Below, one piece after another: positions 18,462-41,845 of a DNA stretch of 48,604 nt. The notes beneath the pieces were generated by a model, which was not told the DNA's origin, did no database searches, and was given only the letters and a program-made list of their open reading frames with translations. The DNA is taken from assembly GCA_002378745.1 (NCBI GenBank), contig DFRR01000005.1, forward strand, positions 43,581 through 92,184, in the 5' to 3' direction. The position numbers and the translations under genes were made by a program. Numbering within the stretch: the stretch's first letter is position 1; every line of letters starts with the position of its first letter. The DNA is from Patescibacteria group bacterium UBA3458. GTDB taxonomy: Bacteria > Patescibacteriota > Minisyncoccia > Phycocordibacterales > UBA2100.

Positions 18462-19001
18462 TTACTTGCTAATGTGGTTAAATATTCCATTGAACATTAT
18501 ATATAAAAATTGTTGCCGTTGCTCGGTGAAGACTGTTTCACCCTCCCCCACTGAAATTTCTGGTATGTTGCTGATGGCAACCGTGTATGGCACGGCGTAC
18601 ATCTTGAGGGTCGCAACGAGTGCAAGTACGTGCTCAAGCGCACGCGTGCCACCGTACTGCCCATCGGACACGCCCACGAGCCCCACGGGCTTGTCCGCAT
18701 ACTCTTTGAAGGCACTATCGAGCAGGAGCTTCAGCTCGCCCGGGAACGAATGATTATATTCGGGCACCACAAGCACAAACGCGTCCATTTGGGCGGCAAT
18801 ATTGCGCCATTTTGAGGCATTTTCATCTGCTACCCAGGCGGGCACCGTAAATGGTGAAATAAGGTACTCTCGTGGGTCTATGAGGTGTACTTCCGGCGCT
18901 TCAGGGCGCTTTTTAAGCTCTTCTGCTATGTACTGGGCAATGTGTACAGAGCGGCGATCTTCTCGCCCGGTGCCGATGACGACTGCAATACGTGTATTCA
19001 T
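18462..19001 (-). CDS. NAD(P)H-dependent FMN reductase family protein
   Basis: 179 aa. IAVVIGTGREDRRS ... DAFVLVVPEYNHSFPGELKLLLD matches the PF03358 flavodoxin-like pattern. Confidence 0.8.
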   Translation of the reverse strand: MNTRIAVVIGTGREDRRSVHIAQYIAEELKKRPEAPEVHLIDPREYLISPFTVPAWVADENASKWRNIAAQMDAFVLVVPEYNHSFPGELKLLLDSAFKEYADKPVGLVGVSDGQYGGTRALEHVLALVATLKMYAVPYTVAISNIPEISVGEGETVFTEQRQQFLYIMFNGIFNHISK

Positions 19002-23397: not shown

Positions 23398-25611
23398 TTA
23401 TCGTAGCTGTTCTATTTCTTGCAGAGCCTGTTGGAGCATAGCGCTCATTTGCGGGTAGTTTTGCTCAAGATAGTATATTTCGTTGGTTGCGTCCTCCAGT
23501 CGGTCAAGCTGTGCGTAGACGCGTACAAGTGCGAAGAATTCGTCGGTGCTGATTTCGCCCCCCTGCTCTTGTTTGTGCGTAACGCCAAGCTCCCACGCTT
23601 GCCGTGCGTAGCTCGTTGCATTTGTGCGCACGAACGCAGCCAGAACGTTTGGTTCAAGTGCCTGCTCAGGAGCCTCAGTGACTACTTCGAATGCCTCTTG
23701 CGACATGCCCGCTCTTAGCAAGATGTGGATGTACGTAGCTCGTGCGTTGCCGTTTGACTCTTCAAGCTCGAGTGCCTGCTTTGCATATTTCACAGCTTGG
23801 TTTGTGTCCCCTGCGTTTGAGGCGGCTACTGCAAGTGGTACGAGAATGCCTTGTTTGGTTGGGCTGAGTTTAAGTGCCTCAAGAAACTCGTCTTGCGCCG
23901 CTTTGTAATTCCCCACCTTGTGATGCAATGCACCAAGCAAGAATGGAAAGCGCGCATCTTCGGGCGCGATCGCTTTTTGTGCTTCAAGCTCCTGCGCAGC
24001 AGCTGCGTACCATTCGTTTCGCTTCTCGGTTGGCATCCACGCTGCAACCGCAAGTGTGCCAGCTGCTTCGCCCCATTGCTCTCGCACTTCTTGTGTACCG
24101 AAAGAGCCTACAGCAACTGCCTTTTGAAACAGTGCAAAGGCGACGTCAGCGCTTGCAATTGCTGTTGTCGTGTCGCCGTTTTCAGCATACGCAGGTGCTG
24201 CGTATGCTGCTCGTAGTGCATCTAAGAGGTTCCTTGAAACAGTGAGTGGAACTATGTTTGCTGTCCATACAACTAGGGTCAAGAGTATTGCTAGTATAGG
24301 CATCCCAACGTATGCAACGACTGTACGCGAAAGAGTGGGCGCCTCCCATCGCCGCAGGAACCACACATCGTCCGCCTGTGCATATACCCACGCGATAACA
24401 CTGAAGAATAGGATGTAGCTCACTACGTTATCGAACACGGTGAGGTTATGAAAACCATAGCCGGCAAGCATACCGAATATCAACCATTTTTGAATCGCAG
24501 TGAAATGAACTGTCTGGTAGAGCGTCAGCAGCAACGTGATGAACACGAGGGCATACGAAAGTAACCCTAAGAATCCCGACGTTGCAAGTAATTCAAAGAC
24601 AATGTTGTGTGTTCTGTCAAACCACGGTTCCTGCGCATACATCCTCGGGTCATAATATTTGTTGAACACGAGGTTAAAGTTTTCCTGCCCCCAGCCAAGG
24701 AGAGGTTTCTCCTTCACGCCCTGCCACGCGATGCTCCATACTACCGTTCGGGAGTAGACTGTGTTTTCAGAAAAAGAAAGGTTCGTGAGGCGGTGGAGTG
24801 TGGGTTGCCCTTGAATAAGGGCTGTGTCGCGTGCTGCCCATAAGCCACCTACCATTACCAGTAACGCAATCAGGGTGATCCCGGCAAACACACGCACGCG
24901 CTTCACGTGACGCAGTGAAAATACTATACCAGTTAGTGCGAGCAAGAGACCGATGACGAGCCCAAGCGTTGCACCACGTGTTGCAGTGAGAAACAGTGTG
25001 GTGAACAGGAATGGCAGTATCGCCACATATGCAAGCCGCTCCCCTCGTGTGACGTCACGCCGTACTAGCAATATGAGTGCAATAAAAATATGAAAGAATG
25101 CATATATTGCAAGGTAAATCGGGTTGCCGAGAGTCGAAGCAATACGTGACGCCCCCGTATCTAGAAACTCCGCAAGTGCATGTAGCGACACAAAGGAAGC
25201 AACAACGAGTGATGTCCTCCAGAGCCACAACCACGCCGTATCGGTGGCGAGTACCGTACCGGCGACAATAGTATACGCAAAGAGGTGTAGTATGGTGACG
25301 AAGCCATCCATGCGTTCAAAATTGCTCCAAAAGCTCTTGTATGGATTTTCGCCAAGTGTTGCCGCAAGTGCCAATATACCGACGAATGCAGTGACTGAAA
25401 GTAGCAGTGCCGTCCAACGCGGCCGATACTGTGCATTGAGTAGTGCGAGCAACACCCACGCTGCCACAATAATCTCTACCAATATGCGAAATGCGATGTT
25501 TTTGCCAACGATGTATGGAAAAAAGAGGTTATCGACGACCAGTAAGACCACTAAAGGAAGCGCAAACACCCCCAGAAAGACGACTCCGCGCAATAATGCT
25601 TCCATATTCAT
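23398..25611 (-). CDS. Wzy_C (O-antigen ligase/polymerase/O-oligosaccharyltransferase superfamily) membrane protein with C-terminal TPR domain
   Basis: 737 aa with about 11-12 hydrophobic helices. The Wzy_C-type segment is [21 protein letters not shown]. The C-terminal ~250 aa are TPR-like ([20 protein letters not shown]..., [17 protein letters not shown]...). Confidence 0.8.
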
Positions 25612-25619
25612 TACTGCGG

Positions 25620-25625
25620 ATTATA
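25620..25625 (-). promoter_or_regulatory. TATAAT box 8 nt upstream of ATG; candidate leaderless promoter
   Basis: The minus strand reads gcTATAATccgcagtaATG. Confidence 0.4.
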
Positions 25626-25655
25626 GCAAACGGATGTATGGATGCTACCATGGTG

Positions 25656-25661
25656 TATACT
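25656..25661 (+). promoter_or_regulatory. TATACT box 9 nt upstream of the gmd ATG
   Basis: ggtgTATACTaaccaccatATG. It is divergent from the Wzy_C-TPR promoter in a 59-bp spacer. Confidence 0.4.
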
Positions 25662-25670
25662 AACCACCAT

Positions 25671-26729
25671 ATGAAAAAGGCATTGGTAACAGGTATCACG
25701 GGTCAGGACGGTTCATACCTTGCAGAGCTCCTCCTTGAAAAGGGGTACGAAGTGCATGGTGTTCAACGACCATCCAGCTCCATACGCACGGCACGTATCA
25801 ACCACTTATTCAATGACCCGGAGATACACGACCGTAAACTTTTTTTACATCATGGTGACCTTACTGATACAACAAACATTTCAAGCTTGATTCGTGATAT
25901 CGAGCCAGACGAAGTGTACAACCTAGCAGCTCAAAGCCACGTACGTATTTCGTTTGACTTACCGGAGCTGACTGCCGAAACTGACGCTCTCGGCACTCTG
26001 ACAATTCTGGAGTCTATACGCAAACAAGGCTTAACGCACAAAACAAAATTTTATCAGGCTTCGACTTCGGAACTATATGGGAAGGTGCAGGAAATTCCAC
26101 AAACCGAAAATACACCCTTTTATCCCCGCAGTCCGTATGGTGTTGCCAAACTATACAGCTTCTGGATTATTAAAAACTATCGCGAAGCGTACGATATGTA
26201 CGCATGCAATGGCATTCTCTTCAACCATGAAAGCGAACGGCGTGGATACAACTTCGTGACGCGGAAAATCACCATTGGTTTATCTAAGATTAAGCTTGGG
26301 CAACAGACGTTGTTAGAACTTGGAAATCTCGATGCTAAGCGAGATTGGGGGTACGCTAAAGAGTATGTGGAGGCAATGTGGCTGATGCTTCAACAGGAAA
26401 AGCCTGAGGACTTTGTGATTGCAACCGGTCAAACACACAGTGTGCGGGAATTTATTGAAGCAGCCTGTGAGGAGCTCGATATCGAACTTGAGTGGCACGG
26501 TGAAGGAGTTGATGAGATTGGTATCGATAAAAAAACTGGTAAACCAATCATAAAAATCAACCCCCGCTACTTCCGTCCAACAGAGGTTGATGTATTGCTC
26601 GGCGATCCGAGTAAAGCAAAGGAGAAACTTGGGTGGGAAGCAAAGACCAAATTTGCAGAACTCGCCAAACTAATGGTCAAGGCTGATTTTGAATTAATGC
26701 AGAAAACTAACGGTGAGTTTTGGTATTAA
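25671..26729 (+). CDS. gmd: GDP-mannose 4,6-dehydratase
   Basis: [30 protein letters not shown]... with YGVAKLY (YxxxK) and [11 protein letters not shown]. The track ORF start at 25491 was replaced by ATG 25671 because the 60-aa extension is non-homologous and overlaps the divergent gene. Confidence 0.95.
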
Positions 26730-26834
26730 AAGTAAGATCGTCTCGAATCGTTTTTCATCATTTAAGTCTGCGCTTAATAACCACTTCCTACCCCAACTTA
26801 CACTCTATAGCAACGGCACTCTAATCGACTAGTT

Positions 26835-27761
26835 ATGGATAAGCATGCAAAAATATACATAGCAGGACACCAAGGATTGGTTGGTTCGGCCATTGTCCGC
26901 AAACTGGCAACGGAGGGATATGCAAACATCCTTACCCGAACCCGGCAAGAACTAGATTTACTTAACCAACAAGCCGTGGCTGATTTCTTTGCGGCTGAAA
27001 AACCGGAGTATGTTTTTCTGGCTGCTGCCAAAGTGGGAGGCATTGTCGCCAATCGCGACTTCCCTGCCGACTTTATGTATCAAAATCTCCAAATTCAGAA
27101 TAATATTATTGAGAACTCGTACCGCAGTGGTGTAACCAAACTTCTCTTTCTCGGCTCTTCCTGTATTTACCCAAAACTTGCGCCCCAACCAATTACAGAA
27201 GAGTCTCTTCTGACGGGACCACTGGAGTCGACTAACGATGCGTATGCCGTTGCCAAAATTGCAGGCATTAAGATGTGCCAATCGTATAATAAGCAGTACG
27301 GCACAAACTTCATCAGCCTCATGCCAACGAACCTCTACGGTCCGAATGACAATTTTGACCTTGAGACCTCTCATGTTCTTCCTGCTTTGATTCGAAAATT
27401 TCACGAAGCGAGAGAGATGCATGCCCCCTCGGTCACACTCTGGGGTACCGGCTCACCAAAGCGTGAGTTCCTTCATGTTGACGATCTCGCCGACGCATCT
27501 GTATTCCTTATGAATAATTACGATGAATCCGATATCATTAACGTAGGTACCGGTGAAGACGTTACAATCAAAGAGCTTGCGGAACTAATACGAGAGACCG
27601 TTGGTTATACTGGGAGCATTGAGTGGGATTCCTCAAAGCCCGACGGGACGCCACGAAAATTACTCGATGTATCGCGTCTGCACAAACTGGGTTGGAAGCA
27701 TTCAATAGACCTTGAGAACGGAATTGGGAGCACGTACGACTGGTACTTTAAAAATTGGTAG
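26835..27761 (+). CDS. fcl: GDP-L-fucose synthase (GDP-4-keto-6-deoxymannose 3,5-epimerase/4-reductase)
   Basis: 308 aa. [15 protein letters not shown]..., [24 protein letters not shown] and NLYGPNDNF are characteristic of Fcl/WcaG. Confidence 0.92.
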
Positions 27762-27792: not shown

Positions 27793-29121
27793 ATGTACGC
27801 ACACCTAAACGCTTTCGCTCGCCTTCTGTTGCCCAATTGGATTTACACACACTTTATTGGCGACTGGAATACGGGAGCATTCAAAAAGTACTCCTACAAC
27901 ACGGGCTGGGCACTGCTCACCAGAACTGTCAGTATAGTGCTGTCTTTTTTAGTTACCATTTACCTCATCCGATACCTTGGTCCAGAAAACTACGGGCAGC
28001 TTAGTTATGCTGTATCATTTGTGGGGGTTTTCTCTATCATTTCATCTCTTGGCTTAGATAACATACTGTACCGAGACCTCATTAAGTATCCAGACCAACG
28101 AAATCACTACCTTGGATCCGCTTTCATACTAAAGCTTGTAGCTGGAACGATTGCAGCAACTCTAACTATAGTCACCGCATTTTTCTTATCACAAGGCGAC
28201 GTATCACGAATGGTGATATTTATGCTCGCAACTACCTTTATATTTAATGCGTTTAATGTAATCGGATATGAGTTTCAAGCAAATGTTCAACAAAAGTATC
28301 CTTCACTGGTTTCTCTTGCAGTAGTTGTTATTTTAAACATACTAAAGATCTTGGTCATCTTGCTTGATAAGGGAGTCTTGTACATAGGGCTTGTTCTTCT
28401 TCTAGAAGCAATCCTCTACGCCGCACTGTTTATATATATACGCAGGAGATACTACGGAACCTTATTTGCATGGCGCTTTAAGATTTCAGTTGCTCAAAGT
28501 TTATTAAAAGATTCATGGCCCTTTATCTTTATTGCTGCTTTTACCACCATATACGTCCGCATTGATCAGATTATGTTGAAATATCTGTTAGATGCTTCTG
28601 CCGTTGGTCTGTATGATGCAGCAGTGCGAATCGCCGAAGTGTGGCTTTTCATTCCAGCAATTATTGTTTCCTCGCTCTTCCCAGCAATCATGAACGCGAG
28701 AGCATCTAGTATTCAGGAGTATAAACGAAGATTATTGATACTTTGCGTGTTGTTATGCACCTTCGCTGCCGTAGTCGCGATTGCCTCATCGCTACTTTCA
28801 AAACCTCTCATGAGGTTACTGTATGGGCCTGCGTTTTTGGCGAGTGCTGGGGTATTTTCTATCTATGTATGGTCGGGCATCTGGGCATCACTGGACATTG
28901 TTGTTCGTTATTTCCTTATCGCGGAGAATAAGCGAGTGCTCATATTTACCACATCGTTAGCTGCAGCGGTGATTAATATTCTATTAAACCTTATCCTCAT
29001 ACCGTATCTGGGTATATATGGAGCTGCCTGGTCTACTTTTATTTCCTACATGTTATTGGCCTTCCCGGTTGTGCTCATACTTATAATGCAGGAGAAAAAG
29101 CTTGGAGCCACTACTTCTTAA
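27793..29121 (+). CDS. wzx: Wzx-type oligosaccharide flippase (MOP superfamily)
   Basis: About 442 aa with more than 10 TM helices. The N-terminal region ...LLTRTVSIVLSFLVTIYLIRYLGPENYGQLSYAVSF... is typical of polysaccharide biosynthesis flippases. The start was set to ATG 27793 to avoid overlap with fcl. Confidence 0.75.
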   Translation: MYAHLNAFARLLLPNWIYTHFIGDWNTGAFKKYSYNTGWALLTRTVSIVLSFLVTIYLIRYLGPENYGQLSYAVSFVGVFSIISSLGLDNILYRDLIKYPDQRNHYLGSAFILKLVAGTIAATLTIVTAFFLSQGDVSRMVIFMLATTFIFNAFNVIGYEFQANVQQKYPSLVSLAVVVILNILKILVILLDKGVLYIGLVLLLEAILYAALFIYIRRRYYGTLFAWRFKISVAQSLLKDSWPFIFIAAFTTIYVRIDQIMLKYLLDASAVGLYDAAVRIAEVWLFIPAIIVSSLFPAIMNARASSIQEYKRRLLILCVLLCTFAAVVAIASSLLSKPLMRLLYGPAFLASAGVFSIYVWSGIWASLDIVVRYFLIAENKRVLIFTTSLAAAVINILLNLILIPYLGIYGAAWSTFISYMLLAFPVVLILIMQEKKLGATTS

Positions 29122-30037
29122 GTAACGCTCTCAGTTCACTTTCTATTATTTCTAGTGAGGTTCTTGTTGGGCGATAGCCGAGGCTCGAAAGCTTTTCCGA
29201 TTCAGAGTAGTAGGCAGTCTTTTGTCCCGTAGGACTTTCTACTCGCATGGAATCAATGAATTCATATACGAGCCCGAGCTGTTGACCTATATATTCTAGC
29301 AACTCTATTTTTGACACAGGTTTAGCACTCTGCATGTCAAATGCTTCGTTTTGAGGCTCTTGCTCGCACAAAAACTGCACCACGTGCCATACGTCGTGTG
29401 CAGTAATGTAATCGCGAACCATATTGGCTGGCGTCGTGTACAGCGTCGTCCCGTCTTGCAAACACTTTGCTATTTCAGAAACTAAAAAAGAGTCCTCCGT
29501 ATCCAGGAAACGACTTACGAATGCAAATACGCGCAAATCAATTATGGCTAATCTTTGGTCTGCACGATGCTTTACTTCCGACATAAGTTTAGCGACTGCA
29601 TAACTATTGTCATTTCGGAGATTAAAAATAGCGTTGGTTGTGTCGGTTATTGGTCCGTCGGCTGCCAGCCCGTAAACGGAGCCAGAACTGATATTAAATA
29701 CCCGCGCATCAGGATGTTTCTTTAGATACTCTGCTAATAAGGTATCCATTTCTTCGATTACAGAAAATACCAACGATGGATTCTCGGACAGTTTTTTGGG
29801 ACTACCGATTCCCGTTGCGTTAATAACAATATCGTATTCTCCACTTAGCAATGCTTTGTAGGGTAAGACCAGAGGTGCATGTATACTCTGCGCTCCCAGA
29901 AACGCTTTGGCCTGGATAACATTGCGCGAAAATGCAGCCACTTCAAAACTAAATTCTTTGGCACCCGCGAGTAATGATCGACCTATATAGCCAGTCGCTC
30001 CTAGCACCGCAACTTTTGGATTAGGTTGTCCCTTCAT
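29111..30037 (-). CDS. NAD(P)-dependent sugar epimerase/reductase (extended SDR)
   Basis: 308 aa with the Rossmann motif VAVLGATGYIGRSL and YAVAKLMSE (YxxxK). A 4-nt overlap with the upstream ThDP enzyme suggests coupling. Confidence 0.75.
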   Translation of the reverse strand: MKGQPNPKVAVLGATGYIGRSLLAGAKEFSFEVAAFSRNVIQAKAFLGAQSIHAPLVLPYKALLSGEYDIVINATGIGSPKKLSENPSLVFSVIEEMDTLLAEYLKKHPDARVFNISSGSVYGLAADGPITDTTNAIFNLRNDNSYAVAKLMSEVKHRADQRLAIIDLRVFAFVSRFLDTEDSFLVSEIAKCLQDGTTLYTTPANMVRDYITAHDVWHVVQFLCEQEPQNEAFDMQSAKPVSKIELLEYIGQQLGLVYEFIDSMRVESPTGQKTAYYSESEKLSSLGYRPTRTSLEIIESELRALLKK

Positions 30038-31836
30038 TTCGAATCTTTCTCATCAACAGGCTTAATTAAGAGGTTGTTGCGATATTCTTCGCGATCGAGA
30101 AACGGCATCATGTCCTCAAGCGGACGTGAGACCATAGTGCCATCTTCGCGCCTTACTGAAGCCACGGCAGGTACTACCGGCTCATTCTTTGGACACATCA
30201 CTTCTACTAGCGCCGCGCCTTTATAGGCCAGCACTTTTTTAAGGTCTTTTTCCAACGTGACGCTGTTCGAGAGTTTAAAATATTTTATCCCGTACGCACC
30301 GGCGATCTTTTCCAGGCTAGGGATTGATACTCCCGACTCCGGACCAGTACCAATTAGATGTCCTTCAAAGAATTTATTTTGAGTTGCCCTAATCGAGAGA
30401 TAACCGCTGTTATTTAATACGAAGGTCTTAACGGGGAGCTTATTATGCACAATTGTCTGTAATTCCTGGATGTTTAGCTGCAGCGAACCATCGCCGGTAA
30501 TCCCATATACTTCTCCACCTTTGGCAACTGCCGCGCCAATACTAGCCGGCACAGTAAAACCCATATCTGCTTGGCCACCGCTGGTTAGGTAACGTTGCTT
30601 CTTCTTTATGTTTACTGCCATAGTAGTGACATAAAACGAAGACCCGGCATCAGAAACAACTACGCCGTCCGCAGGCATGAGTCGACTCAGCGTATCAATC
30701 AGGTTGAACATACTGATTTTGCCCTTGAGCGTCCGATACGCTGGTAAACAGACAGGGTACTTCTTTTTCCATTCGCGACATTGTTTCAACCAAAAACGTA
30801 CATCGGGCATCTGTTTTGGTTGAAAACGTGTAATGAATTCTTTTGCGTCGGCATTGATGAAAAGGTCAATCTTTATTGTTGGCTTCTTGTGCTCTACAGG
30901 GTCAATGTCAATCACAATTTTCTTTGCCTCACGTGCGAATAACTCATACTCGTATCCGATTGCCGTTACACTCAAACGTGTTCCAATCGCGATGATTAGA
31001 TCGGCGTTTTGCATCGCTAGGTTGCCCGACCGACTTGCCTTTGTTCCAATTACACCAATATAATTCGAGTGGTCGGTCGGCAAGTTTGATACTCCAAGGT
31101 ACGGAGCAACTACTGGGATTTTGTATTTCTCAACGAACTTCTTGAACTCGGGAAGCGCACCTGCGAGTCGCAGACCTTGCCCGCCAATGATAACTGGTCG
31201 CTTGGCTTCTTTCAGCATCTTTTCAAGAGCGGATAACTCGCGCTTAGTCGGTACTTTTTTGTATTCTTTTTTCAACTCTTTTGGGTCGAACTTTTTTTGC
31301 TTTGTACTGTCAAAAAAAGCACCTTGTACATCCATTGGAATATCGATCCATACCGGGCCTGGACGCCCTGTCTTTGCAAGATATAAAGCTTTCTCAATAT
31401 GGTATGCAACCTCGTGTGGATCGTTGAGCATTACAGCATACTTGGTGAGTGACTTTACAATTGGAATGATGTCGGCTTCTTGCGTACCGATTTGCCGCAA
31501 CGGAATATCTGAATTATGTGTAGTTTCTTTACGCTTAACTTGCCCGGAAACAAAGACGCACGGAACACTATCTTGCCATGCGTCGAGCAAACCTGTTATT
31601 GCGTTTGTCGCTCCACAACCTGTGCTCGTATACGCAACTCCTATACCGCCCGTATACTTAGCGTACCCGACAGCGGCCATCGCACTCGCCTGTTCATGGT
31701 GATTACAAACTGCCTTAAGTTTCGGATGCACATATACACTGTCAGAAAGAAACATCATACCACCGCCAGTCAACATAAAAATGTCTTTAGCGCCTTCTCT
31801 GTAAAGACGATCTGTAATGTAATCAACGACTCGCAT
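30034..31836 (-). CDS. Thiamine-diphosphate-dependent enzyme, acetolactate-synthase-large-subunit-like (YerE-like candidate)
   Basis: 600 aa. The ThDP motif is GDGSLQLNIQELQTIVHNKLPVKTFVLNNSGY (GDG-x24-NN). The N-terminal Pyr domain is FMLTGGGMMFLSD...NHHEQASAMAAVGYAK. Confidence 0.85.
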   Translation of the reverse strand: MRVVDYITDRLYREGAKDIFMLTGGGMMFLSDSVYVHPKLKAVCNHHEQASAMAAVGYAKYTGGIGVAYTSTGCGATNAITGLLDAWQDSVPCVFVSGQVKRKETTHNSDIPLRQIGTQEADIIPIVKSLTKYAVMLNDPHEVAYHIEKALYLAKTGRPGPVWIDIPMDVQGAFFDSTKQKKFDPKELKKEYKKVPTKRELSALEKMLKEAKRPVIIGGQGLRLAGALPEFKKFVEKYKIPVVAPYLGVSNLPTDHSNYIGVIGTKASRSGNLAMQNADLIIAIGTRLSVTAIGYEYELFAREAKKIVIDIDPVEHKKPTIKIDLFINADAKEFITRFQPKQMPDVRFWLKQCREWKKKYPVCLPAYRTLKGKISMFNLIDTLSRLMPADGVVVSDAGSSFYVTTMAVNIKKKQRYLTSGGQADMGFTVPASIGAAVAKGGEVYGITGDGSLQLNIQELQTIVHNKLPVKTFVLNNSGYLSIRATQNKFFEGHLIGTGPESGVSIPSLEKIAGAYGIKYFKLSNSVTLEKDLKKVLAYKGAALVEVMCPKNEPVVPAVASVRREDGTMVSRPLEDMMPFLDREEYRNNLLIKPVDEKDSK

Positions 31837-31838
31837 AC

Positions 31839-33020
31839 CTATCGTTCGGTTAACGCTGCTCTTAATCTGTCTATTCCTTTTTGTATATCCTCCCGCGAAC
31901 TAACTACGCACATACGAATATAGCCTTCGCCATAATTTCCGAAGTTGGTACCCGGCAACACTGCAACACCAGCTTCTTCAAGTGCAAAGTCAGTAAATTC
32001 TTCGCTGGTCATACCTGTATCACGAATGCTCGGGAACACGTAGATGGCACCACTTGGTGGCAAACATCTAATGCCCGGGATCGAATTTAATCCATCGACT
32101 AACACTTGCATACGCATTTTATATTCATCGGCCATAGCGTTAACTGCACTCTGATCGCCTGAAATTGCCTCAATTGCAGCATACTGAATAAATGGGGGCA
32201 CACAAGAGGAGGTTGTTTGTAGGAGCAAGTCCATCTTTGCGATCACGTCAGCCGGACCAACCAGTGCACCGATACGCCAACCGGTCATTGCAAATGCCTT
32301 GCTAAAGCCATTTGCAATGATAGTACGCTCTTTGCAGTGATCCAAAAATGAAGGGCTGCTAAAGTATACCCCTTCGGCAAAATACATTCTTGAATAAATT
32401 TCGTCACTATATAGATATACATCATGGTCTTTCGCGATTTTTGCAATTTCTACAACCTCCTCTTTAGTCATTACGGAACCTGTTGGATTTTGTGGGGAGT
32501 TAATGATAATCATTCTCGTTTTTGGTGTTATTGCCGCCCGCACGTCATCTGGGTTCATACGAAATGCATTCTCCTCCTTTAGAGGTACACGGACTGCAGT
32601 GACCCCACACGCTTTTAAGACCGAGTAGTAGGTTGGAAATCCGGGATCAGGAACAATAACTTCGTCTCCAGGTTCAACTAGACAGCGAACTGCATAGTAG
32701 ATACCTATGTTAGCACCAGGCACGATTAGTACTTGGTTTAAATCGGGTAAAAACTTGCGCGAGCGTGCCGTAGTGGCACGAACAGACTCGCGTAACTCTT
32801 TAATGCCAGTCGAAGGTGCATAGTGTGTCTTTCCTTCACGAAGTGCTTTCACGCCAGCATCTGTGATGTTTTTTGGGGTTTCAAAATCGGGATCACCAAT
32901 TTCAAAATGAATGATATCTTTCCCCTCCTTTTGCATCTCCTGTACTTTAGCAAGCACTTTGAACATTGGTTGTCCGTCAATGGTATTGGCAAATTTTGTT
33001 AATCGGTATTTCATATACAT
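31839..33020 (-). CDS. Class I/II PLP-dependent aminotransferase (AspC-like)
   Basis: 393 aa. The NGFSKAFAMTGWRIG lysine motif and INSPQNPTG are typical of fold-type I class-I aminotransferases. Confidence 0.85.
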   Translation of the reverse strand: MYMKYRLTKFANTIDGQPMFKVLAKVQEMQKEGKDIIHFEIGDPDFETPKNITDAGVKALREGKTHYAPSTGIKELRESVRATTARSRKFLPDLNQVLIVPGANIGIYYAVRCLVEPGDEVIVPDPGFPTYYSVLKACGVTAVRVPLKEENAFRMNPDDVRAAITPKTRMIIINSPQNPTGSVMTKEEVVEIAKIAKDHDVYLYSDEIYSRMYFAEGVYFSSPSFLDHCKERTIIANGFSKAFAMTGWRIGALVGPADVIAKMDLLLQTTSSCVPPFIQYAAIEAISGDQSAVNAMADEYKMRMQVLVDGLNSIPGIRCLPPSGAIYVFPSIRDTGMTSEEFTDFALEEAGVAVLPGTNFGNYGEGYIRMCVVSSREDIQKGIDRLRAALTER

Positions 33021-33036
33021 TCACGATGGAAATTAG

Positions 33037-33807
33037 CTACCACAGTTTCCATGGGGGTTTTCCATTACTCCACATTTCTTCCAACTTATGCTTATCGCTG
33101 AGAGTGTCCATCGGGTGCCAGAAACCGTCGTGAGAATACGACGACAATCCACCTTCGTGGGCCAGGTTTTTAAGCGGGGCTTGTTCAAGTACCGTGGCAT
33201 CCCCTTCTTCTAGCGAATCGAAAATCTGTGGCTCAAACACAAAAAAGCCAGCACTAATGCGTTTTTGATTATCTGTCTTCTCGCTAAAGTTTGTTACTGC
33301 ATTGCTTTCTCCGACCTCAACGACGCCAAATCTTCCGTCTGGGATAACTGTGGTTACTGTGGCTATACGTCCGTTTTCTTTGTGGTGCGCCAGAAGCTTG
33401 TTCACATTGATGTCTCCCACGCCATCACCATACGTCATCATAAACGCCTCATTCCCGATATGCTCCCGCACCCGCAGCAAGCGTCCGCCAGTCATGGTTG
33501 TTAATCCTGTATCAATCAGCGTAACTTTCCATGGCTCAGGTGCCGGAGTATGCATTTCTATCGAACCTGTAGTGAAATCAAAAGTGACGTTACTTGTGTA
33601 TAAATGATATCGAGAGAACCACTCTTTGATGAATTCGCCTCTATACCCCAAACAGATAACAAACTCATTGAATCCATAGTGGGAATAGATTTTCATAATA
33701 TGCCACAACATTGGCATACCACCGACTTCTACCATTGGTTTAGGTCGCACATGCGTTTCCTCCGCCAAGCGTGTCCCCAATCCTCCAGCTAGTATTACTA
33801 CTTTCAT
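33037..33807 (-). CDS. rfbF: Glucose-1-phosphate cytidylyltransferase
   Basis: MKVVILAGGLGTRLAEETHVRPKPMVEVGGMPMLWHIMKIYSHYGFNEFVICLGYRG is a near-canonical RfbF/DdhA N-terminus. 256 aa. Confidence 0.92.
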   Translation of the reverse strand: MKVVILAGGLGTRLAEETHVRPKPMVEVGGMPMLWHIMKIYSHYGFNEFVICLGYRGEFIKEWFSRYHLYTSNVTFDFTTGSIEMHTPAPEPWKVTLIDTGLTTMTGGRLLRVREHIGNEAFMMTYGDGVGDINVNKLLAHHKENGRIATVTTVIPDGRFGVVEVGESNAVTNFSEKTDNQKRISAGFFVFEPQIFDSLEEGDATVLEQAPLKNLAHEGGLSSYSHDGFWHPMDTLSDKHKLEEMWSNGKPPWKLW

Positions 33808-33810
33808 AAT

Positions 33811-34914
33811 CTATTCTGAGAAATTAAAATAATCCAGTATCTGCTCTTGCGTGATGCGGGATACACTCTCAGGGTCTTCCGCTGTCACTGCATACCAACG
33901 AACAGTTTCTTTTAAAGTTTTTTCAAATGACCACCGTGAAGCCCACCCCAGCCGGCGGTACGCCTTCGTGGTGTCCAAGACCAATTCGGTAGATTCGTGC
34001 TTTGTTTGTGCCACAGCAGAGTCCTGCGCTATTTGTACAGAACCTTTCCCTAGTTGCGCAAGTGCTTTTGTGGCAAAATCACCAACAGTAACCCACGAAG
34101 TATGCTGAGGACCAAAATTCCAAGCTCCCGAAACTTCAGTGTCCCCTTTTGCTAAACGCATACCCATTAATAGGTACCCAGACAACGGCTCAAGAACATG
34201 CTCCCACGGGCGAACCGCATGAGGGTTGCGTATAGAAACATTGCCATCACCATGTAATACTGAGCGCATGATGTCCGGAACCAGCCTGTCTTCGGACCAA
34301 TCCCCACCACCAATCACGTTGCCGGCGCGGGCAATGCCCAACAACGTAGTGTGCGCATCACCGTACTTTGCTGGGTTAAAAAATGACAATCGATATGCGT
34401 TTGCGACAATATCCGCTGCGGCCTTACTGCCACTATACGGATCGTATCCACCGAGCTTTTCGTTCTCACGATACCCATATACCCACTCTTGATTTTCATA
34501 TACTTTATCTGTGGTTATCACAACCATTGCCGTAACAGTTGGTGTTGTACGCACCGCTTCAAGTACATTAGTGGTCCCGACAACATTGGTTGTAATAGTG
34601 AATACGGGCTCCTCGTAACTTCGTCGCACTAAAGCTTGTGCAGCAAGGTGGAATACTATGTCGGGCTTTTCTGTAGAGACTATCTTTTGAATTTCGTCGG
34701 CATCTCGCACATCACACTCATAGTGTCGTACACGAGATTGCAAATCGGTCTGCGTGAACATGCGCTTGTCCGGCTCAACCGGTAGTGCCACACCAACCAC
34801 ATCTGCACCTAGCAGCAACAAAACATGAGTTAACCAAGAACCTTTAAAACCCGTATGTCCTGTAACGAGAACCTTTTTGCCCCGATAGAATTCTTGCAAC
34901 CTTTTATCATCCAT
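33811..34914 (-). CDS. rfbG: CDP-glucose 4,6-dehydratase
   Basis: FYRGKKVLVTGHTGFKGSWL..., DPYSGSKAAADIV (YxxxK) and the ~367-aa length. The start was set to ATG 34914, which has AGGAG 5 nt upstream. Confidence 0.9.
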   Translation of the reverse strand: MDDKRLQEFYRGKKVLVTGHTGFKGSWLTHVLLLLGADVVGVALPVEPDKRMFTQTDLQSRVRHYECDVRDADEIQKIVSTEKPDIVFHLAAQALVRRSYEEPVFTITTNVVGTTNVLEAVRTTPTVTAMVVITTDKVYENQEWVYGYRENEKLGGYDPYSGSKAAADIVANAYRLSFFNPAKYGDAHTTLLGIARAGNVIGGGDWSEDRLVPDIMRSVLHGDGNVSIRNPHAVRPWEHVLEPLSGYLLMGMRLAKGDTEVSGAWNFGPQHTSWVTVGDFATKALAQLGKGSVQIAQDSAVAQTKHESTELVLDTTKAYRRLGWASRWSFEKTLKETVRWYAVTAEDPESVSRITQEQILDYFNFSE

Positions 34915-35011
34915 AGTTCTCCTATTTATATAGGAGTTACCATACATAGTCAAAAGAAAAGCGAGCATGATATACTGTCTAGAATTCACATTAAAATCAA
35001 TACATTTCACT

Positions 35012-36211
35012 ATGAAAGTCCCCTACGCGAAGTCAGTACACGGCGAAGAAGAAATAGAAGCTGTGGTTGAAGTGCTACGCGGTAATACGGCGCTCGGCCC
35101 GAAAGCCGACGAATTTGAAAAGAAGATCGCCGCTATGTTTGGCAAAGAGTACGGAATAATGGTCAACTCCGGTTCATCGGCCAACTTGCTTGCTTTTGAG
35201 GCGATGGGGCTTGAGCCGGGTGATGAGGTGATTACTCCACTTTTAACATTTGGTACTGTCGTTGCACCTATCATTCAGAAGGGTCTGGTGCCGGTTTTTG
35301 TCGATGTAGAAGAGGGTACCTATATTGTTGATCCGGACTCGGTCGAAGCAGCTGTTACCGAAAAAACCCGAGTCCTGATGATCCCGTCTCTTTTGGGCAA
35401 TATTCCAAACCTGGAGCGTCTTCGCGAAATCGCCGACAAACACAAACTATGGCTGGTAGAAGATTCTTGTGACACTCTTGGTGGAACATATAAAGGAAAA
35501 CCGTCCGGTTCGTATTCGGACATATCTACCACCAGCTTCTACGGTTCACATATCATAAACGGTGCCGGTGGTGGTGGTATGATCATGGTTCATGATCAAA
35601 AACTTGCAGAACGTCTAGTAGTACTTCGTGGTTGGGGCCGACGATCTTCGCTCTACGGAGAAACCGCAACATCTGAACTACTGGAAAATCGGTTCGAGGT
35701 GGAGCTCGAAGGAGTACCTTACGACAACAAATTTGTATTTAGCGAAATCGGCTACAACTTCTTGCCGCTAGAGCTTCAGGCTGCTTTTGCGTTAGTGCAA
35801 CTAACTCGCTTCCCCGATTTTGCCAAAGCACGCAAGGCGCACTTTGCAGCCATGCTGGAGTTCTTCAAACAGTATGAAGAATATTTCATTCTTCCTAAGC
35901 AGACACCAAACTCTGAAACCAACTGGTTGGCTTTCCCAGTTGTAATCAAGGACAGTGCACCCTTTGACCGTAAAGGCCTGGCTACTTTTCTCGAGAAAAA
36001 TGGTATTCAGACCCGACCAGTGTTTACCGGCGACATATTGAAGCAGCCAGCCTTCAAGAACATTCCACACCGTCTGGCAGAAACCTCCTACGCCAACACA
36101 GAAGCGGTCATGCGCGGCGGGCTGGTATTTGCCTGCCACCAAGGACTGACTGGCGATCAGATTTCTTATGTACAAGAACATATTTCTTCGTACATTGCCT
36201 CCCGACAATAG
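35012..36211 (+). CDS. DegT/DnrJ/EryC1-fold sugar 3-dehydratase (ColD/E1-type, His replaces catalytic Lys)
   Basis: 399 aa. The active-site region TSFYGSHIINGAGGGGMI has His where aminotransferases of this fold have Lys (SF..xK..xxGEGG). Only 2 Cys occur in the whole protein. The start was set to ATG 35012. Confidence 0.8.
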   Translation: MKVPYAKSVHGEEEIEAVVEVLRGNTALGPKADEFEKKIAAMFGKEYGIMVNSGSSANLLAFEAMGLEPGDEVITPLLTFGTVVAPIIQKGLVPVFVDVEEGTYIVDPDSVEAAVTEKTRVLMIPSLLGNIPNLERLREIADKHKLWLVEDSCDTLGGTYKGKPSGSYSDISTTSFYGSHIINGAGGGGMIMVHDQKLAERLVVLRGWGRRSSLYGETATSELLENRFEVELEGVPYDNKFVFSEIGYNFLPLELQAAFALVQLTRFPDFAKARKAHFAAMLEFFKQYEEYFILPKQTPNSETNWLAFPVVIKDSAPFDRKGLATFLEKNGIQTRPVFTGDILKQPAFKNIPHRLAETSYANTEAVMRGGLVFACHQGLTGDQISYVQEHISSYIASRQ

Positions 36212-36438: not shown

Positions 36439-37377
36439 ATGAATTTTGAAACCAAACTCAGCATCTGTATACCAACGTTCAATAACTCGAGAGGCCTCGA
36501 CGAAATTTTACTTATACTGAGTAAACAGGCCAATGACTTTGGGCTGATGGACCGAATAGAAGTTTGTATATCTGATAACTCCCAATATGGTCTAAACGAG
36601 CGGATGATTGCCTACAATAAAAGTAACTTGGATATTGTTATCAACTATTCTCAAAATGAAAGTAACATCGGATACGATCGTAATGTAGATCGCGTCCTCA
36701 AAATGGCAACGGGTGACTTCTGCTGGTTACTATCTGACAATGAAAACATCTCCGACGACGCCCTTAGAAATATCTACCAGGTTGTTAGCGCGTATCCTCA
36801 AGTGGGCCATATACTAATCTGCCAGTCTGATTCTCGGGTTGACGTCTCGCGACGTTTCGAATCATTGTCTGCAGCAATGGAATTTCTGTGGCCATGGATA
36901 CCGGGCGGGTTAATATCACGAAATATTTTCGCACGGAACCTTCTTCCCAAAGACCTAACTAAGTATTACGGAAATGACTGGATCCATATGTCTCTAGCTA
37001 TAGAAATAGGTCGCACCAACCCAGTTGTATGTATCGGAGAGCTGCTAAGTGGTACCGAGAGCGAAGTCTGCCTCTGGGCCAAGAATGGACAAACTTTCCG
37101 TACATATATGAATCTACTAAATATAATGCGGAATTTGCCACACGAATATGATCAAAAGATCAAAAGCAGAATAGTTGGTGCCATGCAAAAAAGAGTACCG
37201 CGTGAGATACTATCATCAAAGCTGTACGGACTTACTAATACACTTAGCGTACGCCAGGAAATACGAAAACAGTTGGAAAGAAGGTCTGCTCTTAAATTCT
37301 TATCACTAGTAGCTCTTGCGACACCAGCCACATTGATAAAGCATGCAAAAAAATTCAAAAATTATTTTGGTTATTGA
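36439..37377 (+). CDS. Glycosyltransferase family 2-like
   Basis: LSICIPTFNNSRGLDEILLIL...ICISDNSQ... is a GT-A N-terminal pattern. 312 aa. Confidence 0.65.
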   Translation: MNFETKLSICIPTFNNSRGLDEILLILSKQANDFGLMDRIEVCISDNSQYGLNERMIAYNKSNLDIVINYSQNESNIGYDRNVDRVLKMATGDFCWLLSDNENISDDALRNIYQVVSAYPQVGHILICQSDSRVDVSRRFESLSAAMEFLWPWIPGGLISRNIFARNLLPKDLTKYYGNDWIHMSLAIEIGRTNPVVCIGELLSGTESEVCLWAKNGQTFRTYMNLLNIMRNLPHEYDQKIKSRIVGAMQKRVPREILSSKLYGLTNTLSVRQEIRKQLERRSALKFLSLVALATPATLIKHAKKFKNYFGY

Positions 37378-38392
37378 CGTAGGCAATCCCGATTGCGACG
37401 GCAAACTATTTGACCGTGATTTTTTAAGCAATATTAGCCATACATTGTTGCCTATTTATGAACTGGTGAAAATGTGCGATTCATTAGGAATAAAGTGTGT
37501 AACACCTGATGTAGTCCTGAGTAAAGAAATTACACAAGGCGACCAAGAATTACTTCTCATTTCTCACCTTGTTAATAATCGCACCACTAACCTTATTTCG
37601 AGGGGAGCAAAACCTTTCCTGCTCTTATGTCAAGAGTCACCAATGATTGCTACGCGCTTTTACACAAATTTCCGCAACCTGTCAAAACCTTTTGCTTATA
37701 CACTAGCTTTCAGTGGTATGAAAAAGCGAGCTCATGTTAAAACTAATTTCATTCCGCTCCACTTTCCTGTCTATTTTGATACAAGAGCCACGCCAACTAT
37801 TCCATTTTCCGAAAAAAAGCTAATAGCACTGATTGCAGGTAACAAGAGTGCTCCAGCGTGGAAGGCAGTATTAATGAAACTTTTTTTTGGTACTAAGGTT
37901 AAATTGATCTATCCAGTCCGAAAAAAGTTTGTAACGGGTCTAGCGTCAAAGAAAGTTATAGATTTATACGGGAAAGGGTGGGATACTGATAGCAATGAGT
38001 CAGTCCGTGCTGTATATAAAGGATTAGTTCCTGCCGACGGTAAATTAGAGACTCTTTCAAAATATAAGTTTACACTATGCTTTGAAAATGCCATTTTCCC
38101 TGGTTATGTGACCGAAAAGTTGTTTGATGCACTCCTAGCCGGTAGCGTGCCAGTATATCTTGGTGATCCCGACATCTTTGAGAGTATACCAAAGAATATC
38201 TTTGTCGACGCACGTGAGTTCACAGATGTAGATAGCCTACACAGATATTTGAGCAACATGTCAAAAGATATATACGAACAGTACCGAAAAGCTGGTGAGG
38301 AATTCTTAACTTCTTCTGCCTTCGATAAATTTAGTTACGAAACTTTTATTGAAAAGGTGATAAACCTCATAAAATCTTATGAATTCAACTAG
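37343..38392 (+). CDS. GT10 alpha-1,3/4-fucosyltransferase
   Basis: KYKFTLCFENAIFPGYVTEKLFDALLAGSVPVYLG matches the conserved GT10 motif (FENS..xGYVTEK..DA...G.VP.Y.G) known from H. pylori FutA/B. Confidence 0.8.
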   Translation: MQKNSKIILVIDVGNPDCDGKLFDRDFLSNISHTLLPIYELVKMCDSLGIKCVTPDVVLSKEITQGDQELLLISHLVNNRTTNLISRGAKPFLLLCQESPMIATRFYTNFRNLSKPFAYTLAFSGMKKRAHVKTNFIPLHFPVYFDTRATPTIPFSEKKLIALIAGNKSAPAWKAVLMKLFFGTKVKLIYPVRKKFVTGLASKKVIDLYGKGWDTDSNESVRAVYKGLVPADGKLETLSKYKFTLCFENAIFPGYVTEKLFDALLAGSVPVYLGDPDIFESIPKNIFVDAREFTDVDSLHRYLSNMSKDIYEQYRKAGEEFLTSSAFDKFSYETFIEKVINLIKSYEFN

Positions 38393-40281: not shown

Positions 40282-41009
40282 GAGCGTTTATTAAAAAACT
40301 TGTCAGGCTCATGCAAATGCCCTTTGTCCTGAGGGACTACTTTCGATTCGCTAGAAGTAGTGACGAGCGCTTCTCATTAGCCTTATGGAACGCATACCCC
40401 TGCTTGAAGGATAAAACGATGCAAACCGGCTTTGATAGGCATTACGTCTACCACACTGCATGGGCAGCGCGAGTTCTACAAGAAACCAAGCCCGAAACGC
40501 ATACTGACATTGCATCAAGCCTCTATTTTTCTGCAATTGTTTCAGCCTTTGTGCCGACGACATTCTACGACTACCGTCCGGCAAAGTTGGAATTACAGAA
40601 CCTCACCAGTGAGCGTGCCGACCTCACTCAGTTACCGTTTCCGGATAACAGCGTGAAGTCGCTCTCCTGCATGCACACCGTTGAACATGTTGGCCTTGGA
40701 AGATACGGTGACCCTGTTGACCCGGAAGGAGATATAAAAGCGGCTCGTGAACTTTCCCGCGTACTCGCACCTGGCGGTTCACTATTGTTCGTTGCCCCTA
40801 TCGGGAAAAACGCCGTGATAGAATTTAATGCACACCGCATATATACATACGAAGCGGTGTTGGAGCTCTTCCCAGAACTTACCCTCAGCGAATTCTCTCT
40901 CATACCAGAGCATGAAAAAAACGGTGGGCTCATCCGTAATGCGGAGCCCGCAGTGCTAGAGAACGAACACTACGCATGCGGCTGTTTTCACTTCACCAAA
41001 CCAATATGA
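40278..41009 (+). CDS. DUF268-type class I SAM-dependent methyltransferase (probable sugar O-methyltransferase)
   Basis: SLSCMHTVEHVGLGRYGDPVDPEGDIKAARELSRVLAPGGSLLFVAPIG...FNAHRIY matches the DUF268 signature (EH.GLGRYGDP.DP.GD ... FNAHRIY) as I recall it. Both ends have ATGA overlaps. Confidence 0.65.
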   Translation: MRAFIKKLVRLMQMPFVLRDYFRFARSSDERFSLALWNAYPCLKDKTMQTGFDRHYVYHTAWAARVLQETKPETHTDIASSLYFSAIVSAFVPTTFYDYRPAKLELQNLTSERADLTQLPFPDNSVKSLSCMHTVEHVGLGRYGDPVDPEGDIKAARELSRVLAPGGSLLFVAPIGKNAVIEFNAHRIYTYEAVLELFPELTLSEFSLIPEHEKNGGLIRNAEPAVLENEHYACGCFHFTKPI

Positions 41010-41845
41010 TTATCGTCAATCTAAAAGGTGGGCTTGGGAATCAAATGTTTCAGTATGCATGCGGTCGAGCACTCGCGTTACGCACCCGTGATGAGTTGCA
41101 GATTATTGCGGAAGGCCTAGAAGCAGCTAACGCTATTGGTGACCTCTATCGCCCGTTTTCGCTACAAAAGTTCGCTATCGCCGGAGAAGTAATTGGAAAG
41201 AACGAGATACCTCTATGGCATCGTTTGTATTCCCTTTTCGAACAAAAAGTCCTTCGTCGATTCTATGTACATTTTGAACCGTCCCTTTTTTCCAAGAAGG
41301 GTACGGTGTACCTCAATGGTTATTTCCAATCCGAAAAGTACTTTGCCGACTACGCTGATACAATCAGAAGGGAGCTTCGGATACAGGATCCGCTTGGTGC
41401 AGCAGCCGCTGATACCGCTTCGATAGTTACAAACGACGACGTCTCGGTGTCGCTACATGTACGGCGTGGCGACTACGTTACGCACCCAGAATTTGGTGGG
41501 ATTGCCGACGTTTCCTACTACCAACGCGCAGTTGCGAAGATGCAACAGCGAGTGCCACACGCGCATTTTTATGTTTTTTCTGACGACATCGAGTGGTGTA
41601 GAAACAACCTTGCTCTCCCAAAAGACGCGGTTTTTGTTTCCGGCACAGAAATGCAAGACTATGAGGAGCTACACTTGATGTCGCTCTGTCGCCACAATAT
41701 CATTGCCAACTCCTCTTTCTCTTGGTGGGGTGCATGGCTCAATGCCAATCCTGACAAGATAATCATCGCCCCTTCACGTTGGGCGCACGGTAAAAAAGAG
41801 AAAGATTTCCGTGATATTATTCCAGAAAGATGGATTCGGGTATGA
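41006..41845 (+). CDS. GT11 alpha-1,2-fucosyltransferase
   Basis: MIIVNLKGGLGNQMFQYA..., HVRRGDY and SSFSWWGAWLN are the conserved GT11 motifs (FutC/WbsJ type). Confidence 0.88.
   Translation: MIIVNLKGGLGNQMFQYACGRALALRTRDELQIIAEGLEAANAIGDLYRPFSLQKFAIAGEVIGKNEIPLWHRLYSLFEQKVLRRFYVHFEPSLFSKKGTVYLNGYFQSEKYFADYADTIRRELRIQDPLGAAAADTASIVTNDDVSVSLHVRRGDYVTHPEFGGIADVSYYQRAVAKMQQRVPHAHFYVFSDDIEWCRNNLALPKDAVFVSGTEMQDYEELHLMSLCRHNIIANSSFSWWGAWLNANPDKIIIAPSRWAHGKKEKDFRDIIPERWIRV

Follow-up and report, generated by a model that had tools for sequence, protein, structure and literature searches.

We describe here a gene in a 48,604-nucleotide stretch of DNA from Patescibacteria group bacterium UBA3458 (contig DFRR01000005.1, positions 43,581 to 92,184; "the window" below means this whole stretch). 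Its product, P0001, resembles the sugar 3-dehydratase E1 (RfbH/DdhC/AscC) and has a histidine at the position of the pyridoxal 5'-phosphate (PLP) lysine, but it lacks ligands of the E1 iron–sulfur (Fe-S) cluster, and no gene for the E3 reductase was found in the genome. The pyridoxamine 5'-phosphate (PMP)-dependent, iron–sulfur, radical-type deoxygenation by E1 and E3 is the textbook one, by which cytidine diphosphate (CDP)-3,6-dideoxyhexoses are usually assumed to be made. We consider it likely, with a probability of about 0.7, that P0001 is instead a PMP-dependent 3-dehydratase that acts on CDP-4-keto-6-deoxy-D-glucose, releases its product by hydrolysis in the manner of ColD and regenerates PMP from an amino acid.

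Active site and cluster-ligand positions

P0001 matched the Pfam family DegT_DnrJ_EryC1 with 280 bits. Its best NCBIfam model was the RfbH equivalog, which scored 365.1 bits, under its cut-off of 423, and whose match starts at profile position 36. An alternative ATG at 34967 would give the protein 15 extra residues; since these are absent from its relatives, whose alignments begin at P0001 residues 1–3, position 35012 is the likely start. In a phmmer search against the sequences of the Protein Data Bank (PDB), E1 scored highest (3bcx, 273 bits; 3bb8, 270 bits), and ColD gave 175 bits. The AlphaFold model of P0001 has a mean predicted local distance difference test score (pLDDT) of 94.9, and in Foldseek its top matches were again E1 (3bcx and 3bb8, template modelling (TM) scores 0.91–0.92), ColD coming next (TM 0.87).

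For residue-level comparison we used pairwise alignments and a MAFFT alignment of 120 rows with Salmonella RfbH and E. coli O55 ColD as references. Reference sequences (Salmonella RfbH, RfbI, RfbF and RfbG; E. coli O55 ColD, ColC and Fcl) came from annotated records, and residue roles other than those of the histidine and the four cysteines were taken from the literature (PMC8987622) and the alignments. P0001 includes TSFYGSHIINGAGGGG, and its SFYGSH motif begins at residue 175. His180 of this motif aligns under His220 of E1, in the column where the H220K mutant (3bb8) has lysine, and is invariant in an alignment (A1) of 28 sequences from the clade of P0001 described below. A histidine at the PLP-lysine position had been proposed in an earlier note on this DNA, and the alignments with E1 and ColD leave no lysine there.

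The same note had stated that the protein has only two cysteines and lacks those that hold the E1 cluster; this is indeed the case. Cysteines occur in P0001 at positions 153 and 375 only, and the [2Fe-2S] ligand pattern of E1 (Cys193, Cys251, Cys253 and Cys261; C-X57-C-X1-C-X7-C) is absent. In the pairwise alignment DCYCAPGCDNTC of E1 lies over RSSLYGETATSELL of P0001. At E1 positions 220/193/251/253/261 the MAFFT alignment reads H-C-S-L-L for P0001, H-C-C-C-C for Salmonella RfbH and H-C-R-L-T for ColD, so that three of the four ligand columns hold Ser, Leu and Leu in P0001. The loop that bears these positions, between WGR and YD, is nevertheless 26 residues long in both P0001 and Salmonella E1, versus 18 in ColD, and in the P0001 model it forms short helices (pLDDT 81–88). 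The N-terminal extension of the Fe-S-type rows (median 32 residues) is missing.

Cys153, the equivalent of E1 Cys193, was considered as a possible remnant ligand. We rejected a residual cluster at this residue, because the column holds cysteine in the cluster-free ColD and alanine in the related proteins of Roseibium and Palleronia (H-A-S-L-x); nor is Cys153 among the invariant columns of A1.

Partner genes, clade and gene context

The genome comprises 698,950 bp in 17 contigs and is estimated to be 94.72% complete. E3 (RfbI/DdhD/AscD) combines Fer2, FAD_binding_6 and NAD_binding_1 domains; across the whole genome neither FAD_binding_6 (PF00970) nor Fer2 (PF00111) gave a match, and the best tblastn E-value with Salmonella RfbI was 2.3. 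The lack of a ddhD-like partner, which had been noticed earlier for the island, thus extends to the assembled genome. Searches for SufBD, NifU_N and radical-SAM domains were negative as well, although they were positive in 14, 11 and 14 of 14 control genomes, respectively. With no reductase and no Fe-S assembly genes found, an Fe-S-dependent E1 would here lack a partner and, apparently, a route of maturation; Fe-S protein biogenesis may be scant or absent in this organism.

In the phylum, SufBD was present in 130 of 401 sampled genomes. FAD_binding_6 occurred in four of five same-phylum genomes with an Fe-S-type homologue versus none of five with the Fe-S-free type, and SufBD in 11 of 16 Fe-S-type carriers versus 2 of 8 Fe-S-free carriers. 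Dehydratase type and the presence of SufBD did not go strictly together, and the trend is only suggestive because the numbers are small and the genomes related. A CxCx10-11C variant of the cysteine motif was seen in G183, G228, G104 and G315.

The missing cysteines are no product of chance or decay in P0001. Among its 120 closest database homologues (64–88% identity) none has the CxCx7C motif, and in 118 a simple motif test finds the histidine. In the top 150 representatives after clustering at 50%, rows with SFY[GA]SH lack the cysteines and those with SFYPAH mostly have them. We built a quick IQ-TREE phylogeny (LG+G4) of 120 rows with three Lys-type aminotransferases as the root; its backbone is weakly supported, and its proportions are biased because the rows were picked by similarity to P0001. 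P0001 falls in a clade of 47 rows (SH-aLRT 99), none of which has the three cysteines. Salmonella RfbH belongs to a clade of 18 rows, all of the Fe-S type, and ColD lies with nine other rows in a separate, starred clade near the base. Judged by sequence, then, P0001 is a member of an Fe-S-free clade with good support, closer to E1 than to ColD. The tree requires 11–12 changes between the two states, at least six of them forced by starred branches, and leaves the direction, loss or gain of the cluster, ambiguous. Within A1, 29 columns are invariant and 27 near-invariant, including those of the active-site residues Asp151, Asp154, Ser175 and His180, and the loop that replaces the cluster loop has a consensus of its own, WGRxSxxxGExxSE.

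A clade-specific pattern gave at least 599 matches over species-representative genomes, of which at least 588 were confirmed as relatives. The earlier note had called ColD-type chemistry on a CDP-sugar an uncommon combination; we found no paper characterizing a cluster-free CDP-sugar 3-dehydratase, within limited literature coverage, but in genomes the combination is common. Close homologues carry the names of Nomurabacteria, Kaiserbacteria and Parcubacteria. Within the phylum of the window the distribution is patchy, with any match in 41 of 401 genomes and in none of seven from the same order. Relatives occur further in Paracoccus, Erythrobacter, Actibacterium, a Legionella metagenome-assembled genome and Bacteroidota, and on records of plasmids or chromids from Roseibium aggregatum (53% identity), Palleronia, Leisingera, Sinorhizobium and Ensifer; culturable carriers include Roseibium, Paracoccus and Sinorhizobium.

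Several homologues call for separate mention. In NCBI/nr, P0036, P0039, P0042 and P0090 go under the name "NarL family transcriptional regulator", clearly a wrong annotation of a DegT-fold enzyme that has spread between records. Large insertions split two sets of homologues (P0127, P0147, P0172, P0200, P0229 and P0261; P0166, P0181, P0213, P0235, P0243 and P0256), with Intein_splicing and Hint matches in P0127 and a LAGLIDADG match in P0166. One insertion site falls near P0001 residue 150, within the ED-x-C-D motif, and the other at about 211–222, just ahead of the Cys loop; given these locations, a conserved cysteine may serve as the intein +1 residue.

To see what accompanies the clade we inspected the best 80 loci of the at least 588 confirmed relatives (54–79% identity), with up to 10 kb of flank per side. 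Homologues of rfbF and rfbG were present in 41 of these loci and a YerE-like gene in 29. Nineteen contained a pair of RmlC-like and RfbJ/RmlD-like genes and 12 a large class I methyltransferase; the class I aminotransferase (at least 50% identity) was found in four and an RmlB-like gene in three, while no RfbI (E3) homologue was found within 10 kb in any of the 80. The Roseibium and Palleronia plasmid records show rfbF-rfbG-X-methyltransferase-oxidoreductase operons, again with no E3. These two loci (L044, 10001–13614, Roseibium aggregatum plasmid; L045, Palleronia sp. THAF1 plasmid) have the order rfbF, rfbG, cluster-free dehydratase, a class I S-adenosylmethionine-dependent methyltransferase of about 415 residues, oxidoreductase and glycosyltransferase family 2 (GT2), and predict, in culturable marine Alphaproteobacteria, a C-methylated CDP-3,6-dideoxyhexose, to which we could assign no known product. 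Elsewhere the 3-dehydratase homologue is fused to a deoxythymidine diphosphate (dTDP)-glucose 4,6-dehydratase, an RmlD-like reductase or an RmlC-like epimerase (P0122, P0123, P0128, P0129, P0139, P0155 and P0189), giving one-polypeptide deoxysugar pathways; a CxC motif scan found the cysteine motif in none of these fusions, the RfbH-scoring P0139 included.

In the window, the earlier note's divergent pairing of the dehydratase gene with rfbG and rfbF holds: both neighbours score above their model cut-offs, and 97 bp separate the dehydratase gene from rfbG (Table 1). The start of rfbG was re-set to the ATG at 34914, which has a GGAGA-type ribosome-binding site ahead of it, the listed open reading frame being over-extended. 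The intergenic region holds one sigma-70-like match (34947–34976, plus strand) by consensus only, a count no higher than in shuffled sequence. Diverging from P0001, the operon runs rfbG-rfbF, class I aminotransferase, YerE-like thiamine diphosphate (ThDP) enzyme and short-chain dehydrogenase/reductase (SDR), and looks like a yersiniose-type operon for a branched 3,6-dideoxyhexose. YerE-type enzymes add a branch derived from a 2-oxo acid to CDP-4-keto-3,6-dideoxy-D-glucose, and YerF-type reductases finish the sugar; transamination is mentioned as a route to the donor keto acids (PMC9306805). Acetohydroxyacid synthase (AHAS) models scored under their cut-offs on the YerE-like enzyme, and the SDR recurs beside the ThDP enzyme in related loci.

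We also considered whether the class I aminotransferase generally accompanies the dehydratase in order to regenerate glutamate, and rejected such a role. Because it occurs in only four of the 80 loci (L050, L052, L083 and L085), all with the closest subtypes of the ThDP enzyme, it most likely supplies the 2-oxo acid branch donor for that enzyme; that it may also recycle glutamate is speculation. A gene for an NADPH-dependent flavin mononucleotide (FMN) reductase lies at 18462–19001 on the minus strand (Pfam FMN_red, 104 bits; no NCBIfam assignment), 16 kb from the sugar genes and among unrelated neighbours (SecA at 19960–22515).

Table 1. Position and supporting evidence of the dehydratase gene, its key codons and the neighbouring sugar genes (window coordinates)
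Feature	Coordinates	Strand	Evidence
Predicted Fe-S-free, His-type PMP-dependent nucleoside diphosphate (NDP)-4-keto-6-deoxyhexose 3-dehydratase (P0001, 399 aa)	35012..36211	+	Open reading frame, family and PDB matches
His180 codon, catalytic His replacing the PLP lysine; counterpart of E1 His220 and of the catalytic His in ColD (SFYSNH)	35549..35551	+	Pairwise and MAFFT alignments
Loop residues 211–236, WGR to YD; Cys251/253/261 replaced by Ser/Leu/Leu	35642..35719	+	Alignments
Cys153 codon, equivalent of E1 Cys193	35468..35470	+	MAFFT alignment
Divergent intergenic region, 97 bp, between rfbG and dehydratase gene	34915..35011	.	Sequence reading
rfbG, CDP-glucose 4,6-dehydratase, maker of the presumed substrate	33811..34914	-	TIGR02622, 449 bits (cut-off 278)
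rfbF, glucose-1-phosphate cytidylyltransferase	33037..33807	-	TIGR02623, 370 bits (cut-off 300)
Class I/II aminotransferase	31839..33020	-	Pfam Aminotran_1_2, 245 bits
ThDP-dependent carboligase of YerE-like type with acetolactate-synthase fold; CDP-4-keto-3,6-dideoxyglucose is its presumed substrate	30034..31836	-	Three TPP_enzyme Pfam domains
Extended SDR, YerF-like reductase candidate	29111..30037	-	Pfam Epimerase, 64 bits
gmd and fcl, separate GDP-L-fucose branch, not a dehydratase partner	25491..27761	+	TIGR01472, NF047922

Proposed mechanism and rival explanations

The 3-dehydratases share their first steps, formation of a PMP ketimine and His-initiated elimination of the 3-OH to a 3,4-hexoseen adduct (PMC8987622). 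In E1 and SpnQ this adduct is reduced via the enzyme's own [2Fe-2S] cluster, whereas in ColD it is hydrolysed, ammonia is released and PMP is regenerated from glutamate (PMC8987622); the C3-dehydratases of C. jejuni likewise carry out an Fe-S-free, glutamate-driven 3-deoxygenation (PMC10440746). We assign the ColD route to P0001 because, for an enzyme with neither cluster nor reductase, it is the sole documented route of turnover. In the proposed scheme, RfbF and RfbG would make CDP-4-keto-6-deoxy-D-glucose, which P0001 would bind as a PMP ketimine at the sugar C4. His180 would abstract the C4' proton, and the 3-OH would leave. The resulting delta-3,4-glucoseen adduct would stay unreduced, there being no [2Fe-2S] cluster and no E3, and hydrolytic release as in ColD would yield CDP-4-keto-3,6-dideoxy-D-glucose, ammonia and PLP. 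PMP would then be restored from an amino acid, probably L-glutamate, and the product would pass to the YerE-like ThDP enzyme and the SDR to become a C4-branched 3,6-dideoxyhexose for a surface glycan encoded by the island. ColD-type chemistry on a CDP-sugar was one of two alternatives offered by the earlier note, and the one best supported by context and phylogeny: rfbG and rfbF diverge from the gene, the rfbF-rfbG-X synteny recurs, a YerE-like consumer is at hand and no E3 or Fe-S machinery was found. The CDP handle, the hydrolytic step and the nature of the amino donor we infer.

Several observations weigh against this assignment. P0001 is nearer E1 than ColD (273 versus 175 bits; TM 0.91 versus 0.87), so that ColD-type chemistry is argued here from missing parts and not from homology. 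E1 showed no transferase activity under conditions like those in which SpnQ transaminates (PMC8987622), so that use of an amino donor may demand additional changes in an E1-like scaffold. The literature that we searched yielded no biochemical data on any member of the clade, and in a genome that is 94.7% complete the absence of E3 and the other genes is not proven. In 28 of the 80 related loci no 4,6-dehydratase was seen within 10 kb. The nucleotide handle, moreover, probably varies within the clade and is not uniform, because the cluster-free P0122 (54% identity) carries a fused dTDP-glucose 4,6-dehydratase domain (388 versus a cut-off of 365).

The closeness to E1 in sequence and structure would also suit an enzyme that keeps PMP and reduces the glucoseen adduct as E1 does, drawing electrons from a non-Fe-S source, for example hydride from NAD(P)H via a partner SDR or flavoprotein, with an amino donor unnecessary. 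Clade members often stand beside, or are fused to, SDR-type reductases (P0123, P0128), and the window holds the FMN reductase gene mentioned above. We nevertheless regard such a route as unlikely: no precedent for hydride reduction was found in the literature searched, a role as 4-ketoreductase or 4,6-dehydratase explains the SDRs that adjoin or are fused to clade members, the FMN reductase gene is remote and in unrelated company, and cluster-free turnover is already accounted for by ColD chemistry. Were it true, sugar C-3 deoxygenation would have a third mechanism, one open to cells in which, as here, no Fe-S assembly genes are detectable. SpnQ transaminates when it has no reductase, which raises the option, likewise unlikely, that P0001 is not a net 3-deoxygenating enzyme and is a 4-aminotransferase (compare the SpnQ side reaction), a 3,4-ketoisomerase or an epimerase-type enzyme, the sugar then not being 3-deoxy. 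However, 118 of the 120 close homologues have His and not Lys, and efficient transamination requires Lys, the H220K mutant of E1 transaminating only non-catalytically (PMC8987622). The recurrence of YerE-like enzymes with the clade also speaks for 3-deoxygenation, as their known acceptor is a 3-deoxy-4-keto sugar (PMC9306805).

The other alternative in the earlier note was colitose synthesis from the product of Gmd, P0001 dehydrating guanosine diphosphate (GDP)-4-keto-6-deoxy-D-mannose and a ColC-like enzyme completing GDP-colitose. The gmd gene does lie, as that note had it, some 8–9 kb upstream in the same island (25491–26729; TIGR01472, 567 bits, cut-off 415), the characterized Fe-S-free 3-dehydratases are all GDP-linked (PMC8987622, PMC10440746), and in 5 of the 80 related loci gmd occurs with no rfbG within 10 kb. 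Against this, the one gene of the Fcl/ColC family, that of the SDR beside gmd, is a genuine fcl (NCBIfam NF047922, 515.5 bits, cut-off 500), its product sharing 59% identity with E. coli Fcl and 39% with ColC, and the island encodes fucosyltransferases of families GT10 and GT11 (37343–38392 and 40976–41845), which account for gmd and fcl. P0001, moreover, falls outside the ColD clade, retains a loop of E1 length and the E1-type YD motif, and adjoins rfbG and rfbF, as do most of its close relatives. RfbG and Gmd, both inside the window, are the only 4,6-dehydratase-type enzymes of the genome, in which no RmlB scored above cut-off. With fucose accounting for gmd, and ColC absent, we give colitose only a slender chance. 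Finally, the lack of three ligands and of the E1 N-terminal extension might mark a decaying, inactive E1 gene, but this we hold to be very improbable, as the frame is intact, the same state is found in hundreds of relatives across phyla, and the clade conserves both the replaced loop (WGRxSxxxGExxSE) and its 29 invariant and 27 near-invariant columns, Asp151, Asp154, Ser175 and His180 among them.

If the ColD-type assignment is correct, a large and widespread clade with culturable carriers would combine an E1-like scaffold with a probably ColD-like chemistry. 3,6-Dideoxy and branched sugars could then be predicted in many genomes where the missing E3 looks like a gap in the pathway, and relatives that now bear the name "NarL family transcriptional regulator" or pass as generic aminotransferases could be re-annotated. 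Such an enzyme would offer a single-enzyme, oxygen-insensitive route to CDP-4-keto-3,6-dideoxyglucose for chemo-enzymatic synthesis, and would show how rare sugars could decorate the surface of an ultra-small bacterium in which no Fe-S assembly genes are detectable.

Comparison with known systems

The best sequence match of P0001 is E1 of Salmonella and Yersinia (PDB 3bcx, 3bb8), the CDP-6-deoxy-L-threo-D-glycero-4-hexulose 3-dehydrase, with about 40% identity to Salmonella RfbH. The two share the DegT/AAT type-I fold, the His in place of Lys, the ED-x-C-D motif, the 26-residue loop and a gene position by rfbF/rfbG. Unlike E1, P0001 is without Cys251/253/261 and without the N-terminal extension of about 33 residues, scores under the RfbH cut-off (365 versus 423) and has no E3 that we could find in its genome. 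With ColD (E. coli O55; PDB 2gms, 3b8x) and the C. jejuni HS:5/HS:11 C3-dehydratases it has in common the His-for-Lys replacement and the lack of both Fe-S cluster and reductase; the hydrolytic release and glutamate-driven regeneration of PMP in those enzymes are the only known cluster-free turnover (PMC8987622, PMC10440746). It differs from ColD, however, in sequence (about 31% identity, 175 bits), in clade, in loop length (26 versus 18) and in context: ColD works on the GDP-mannose side with ColC, colD standing beside colC in E. coli O55, whereas P0001 has a CDP-glucose context and ColC is absent.

SpnQ, the TDP-4-keto-2,6-dideoxyglucose 3-dehydratase of the spinosyn pathway, resembles P0001 in being a 3-dehydratase with no dedicated E3 in its cluster, but it retains the [2Fe-2S] motif and uses general ferredoxin/flavodoxin reductases (PMC8987622), whereas P0001 lacks the motif and its genome lacks Fer2 and FAD_binding_6 matches. 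The closest parallel in operon logic is with the pathways of yersiniose A and acyl-branched sugars (DdhA-D, YerE and YerF; ErwE/ErwF; MMAR_2332), which likewise combine rfbF, rfbG, a 3-dehydratase, a ThDP carboligase and a reductase (PMC9306805). Unlike in those pathways, the 3-deoxygenation enzyme here is cluster-free and has no E3, and a class I aminotransferase stands in the place of the aldolase of the erwiniose and caryophyllose clusters (PMC9306805).

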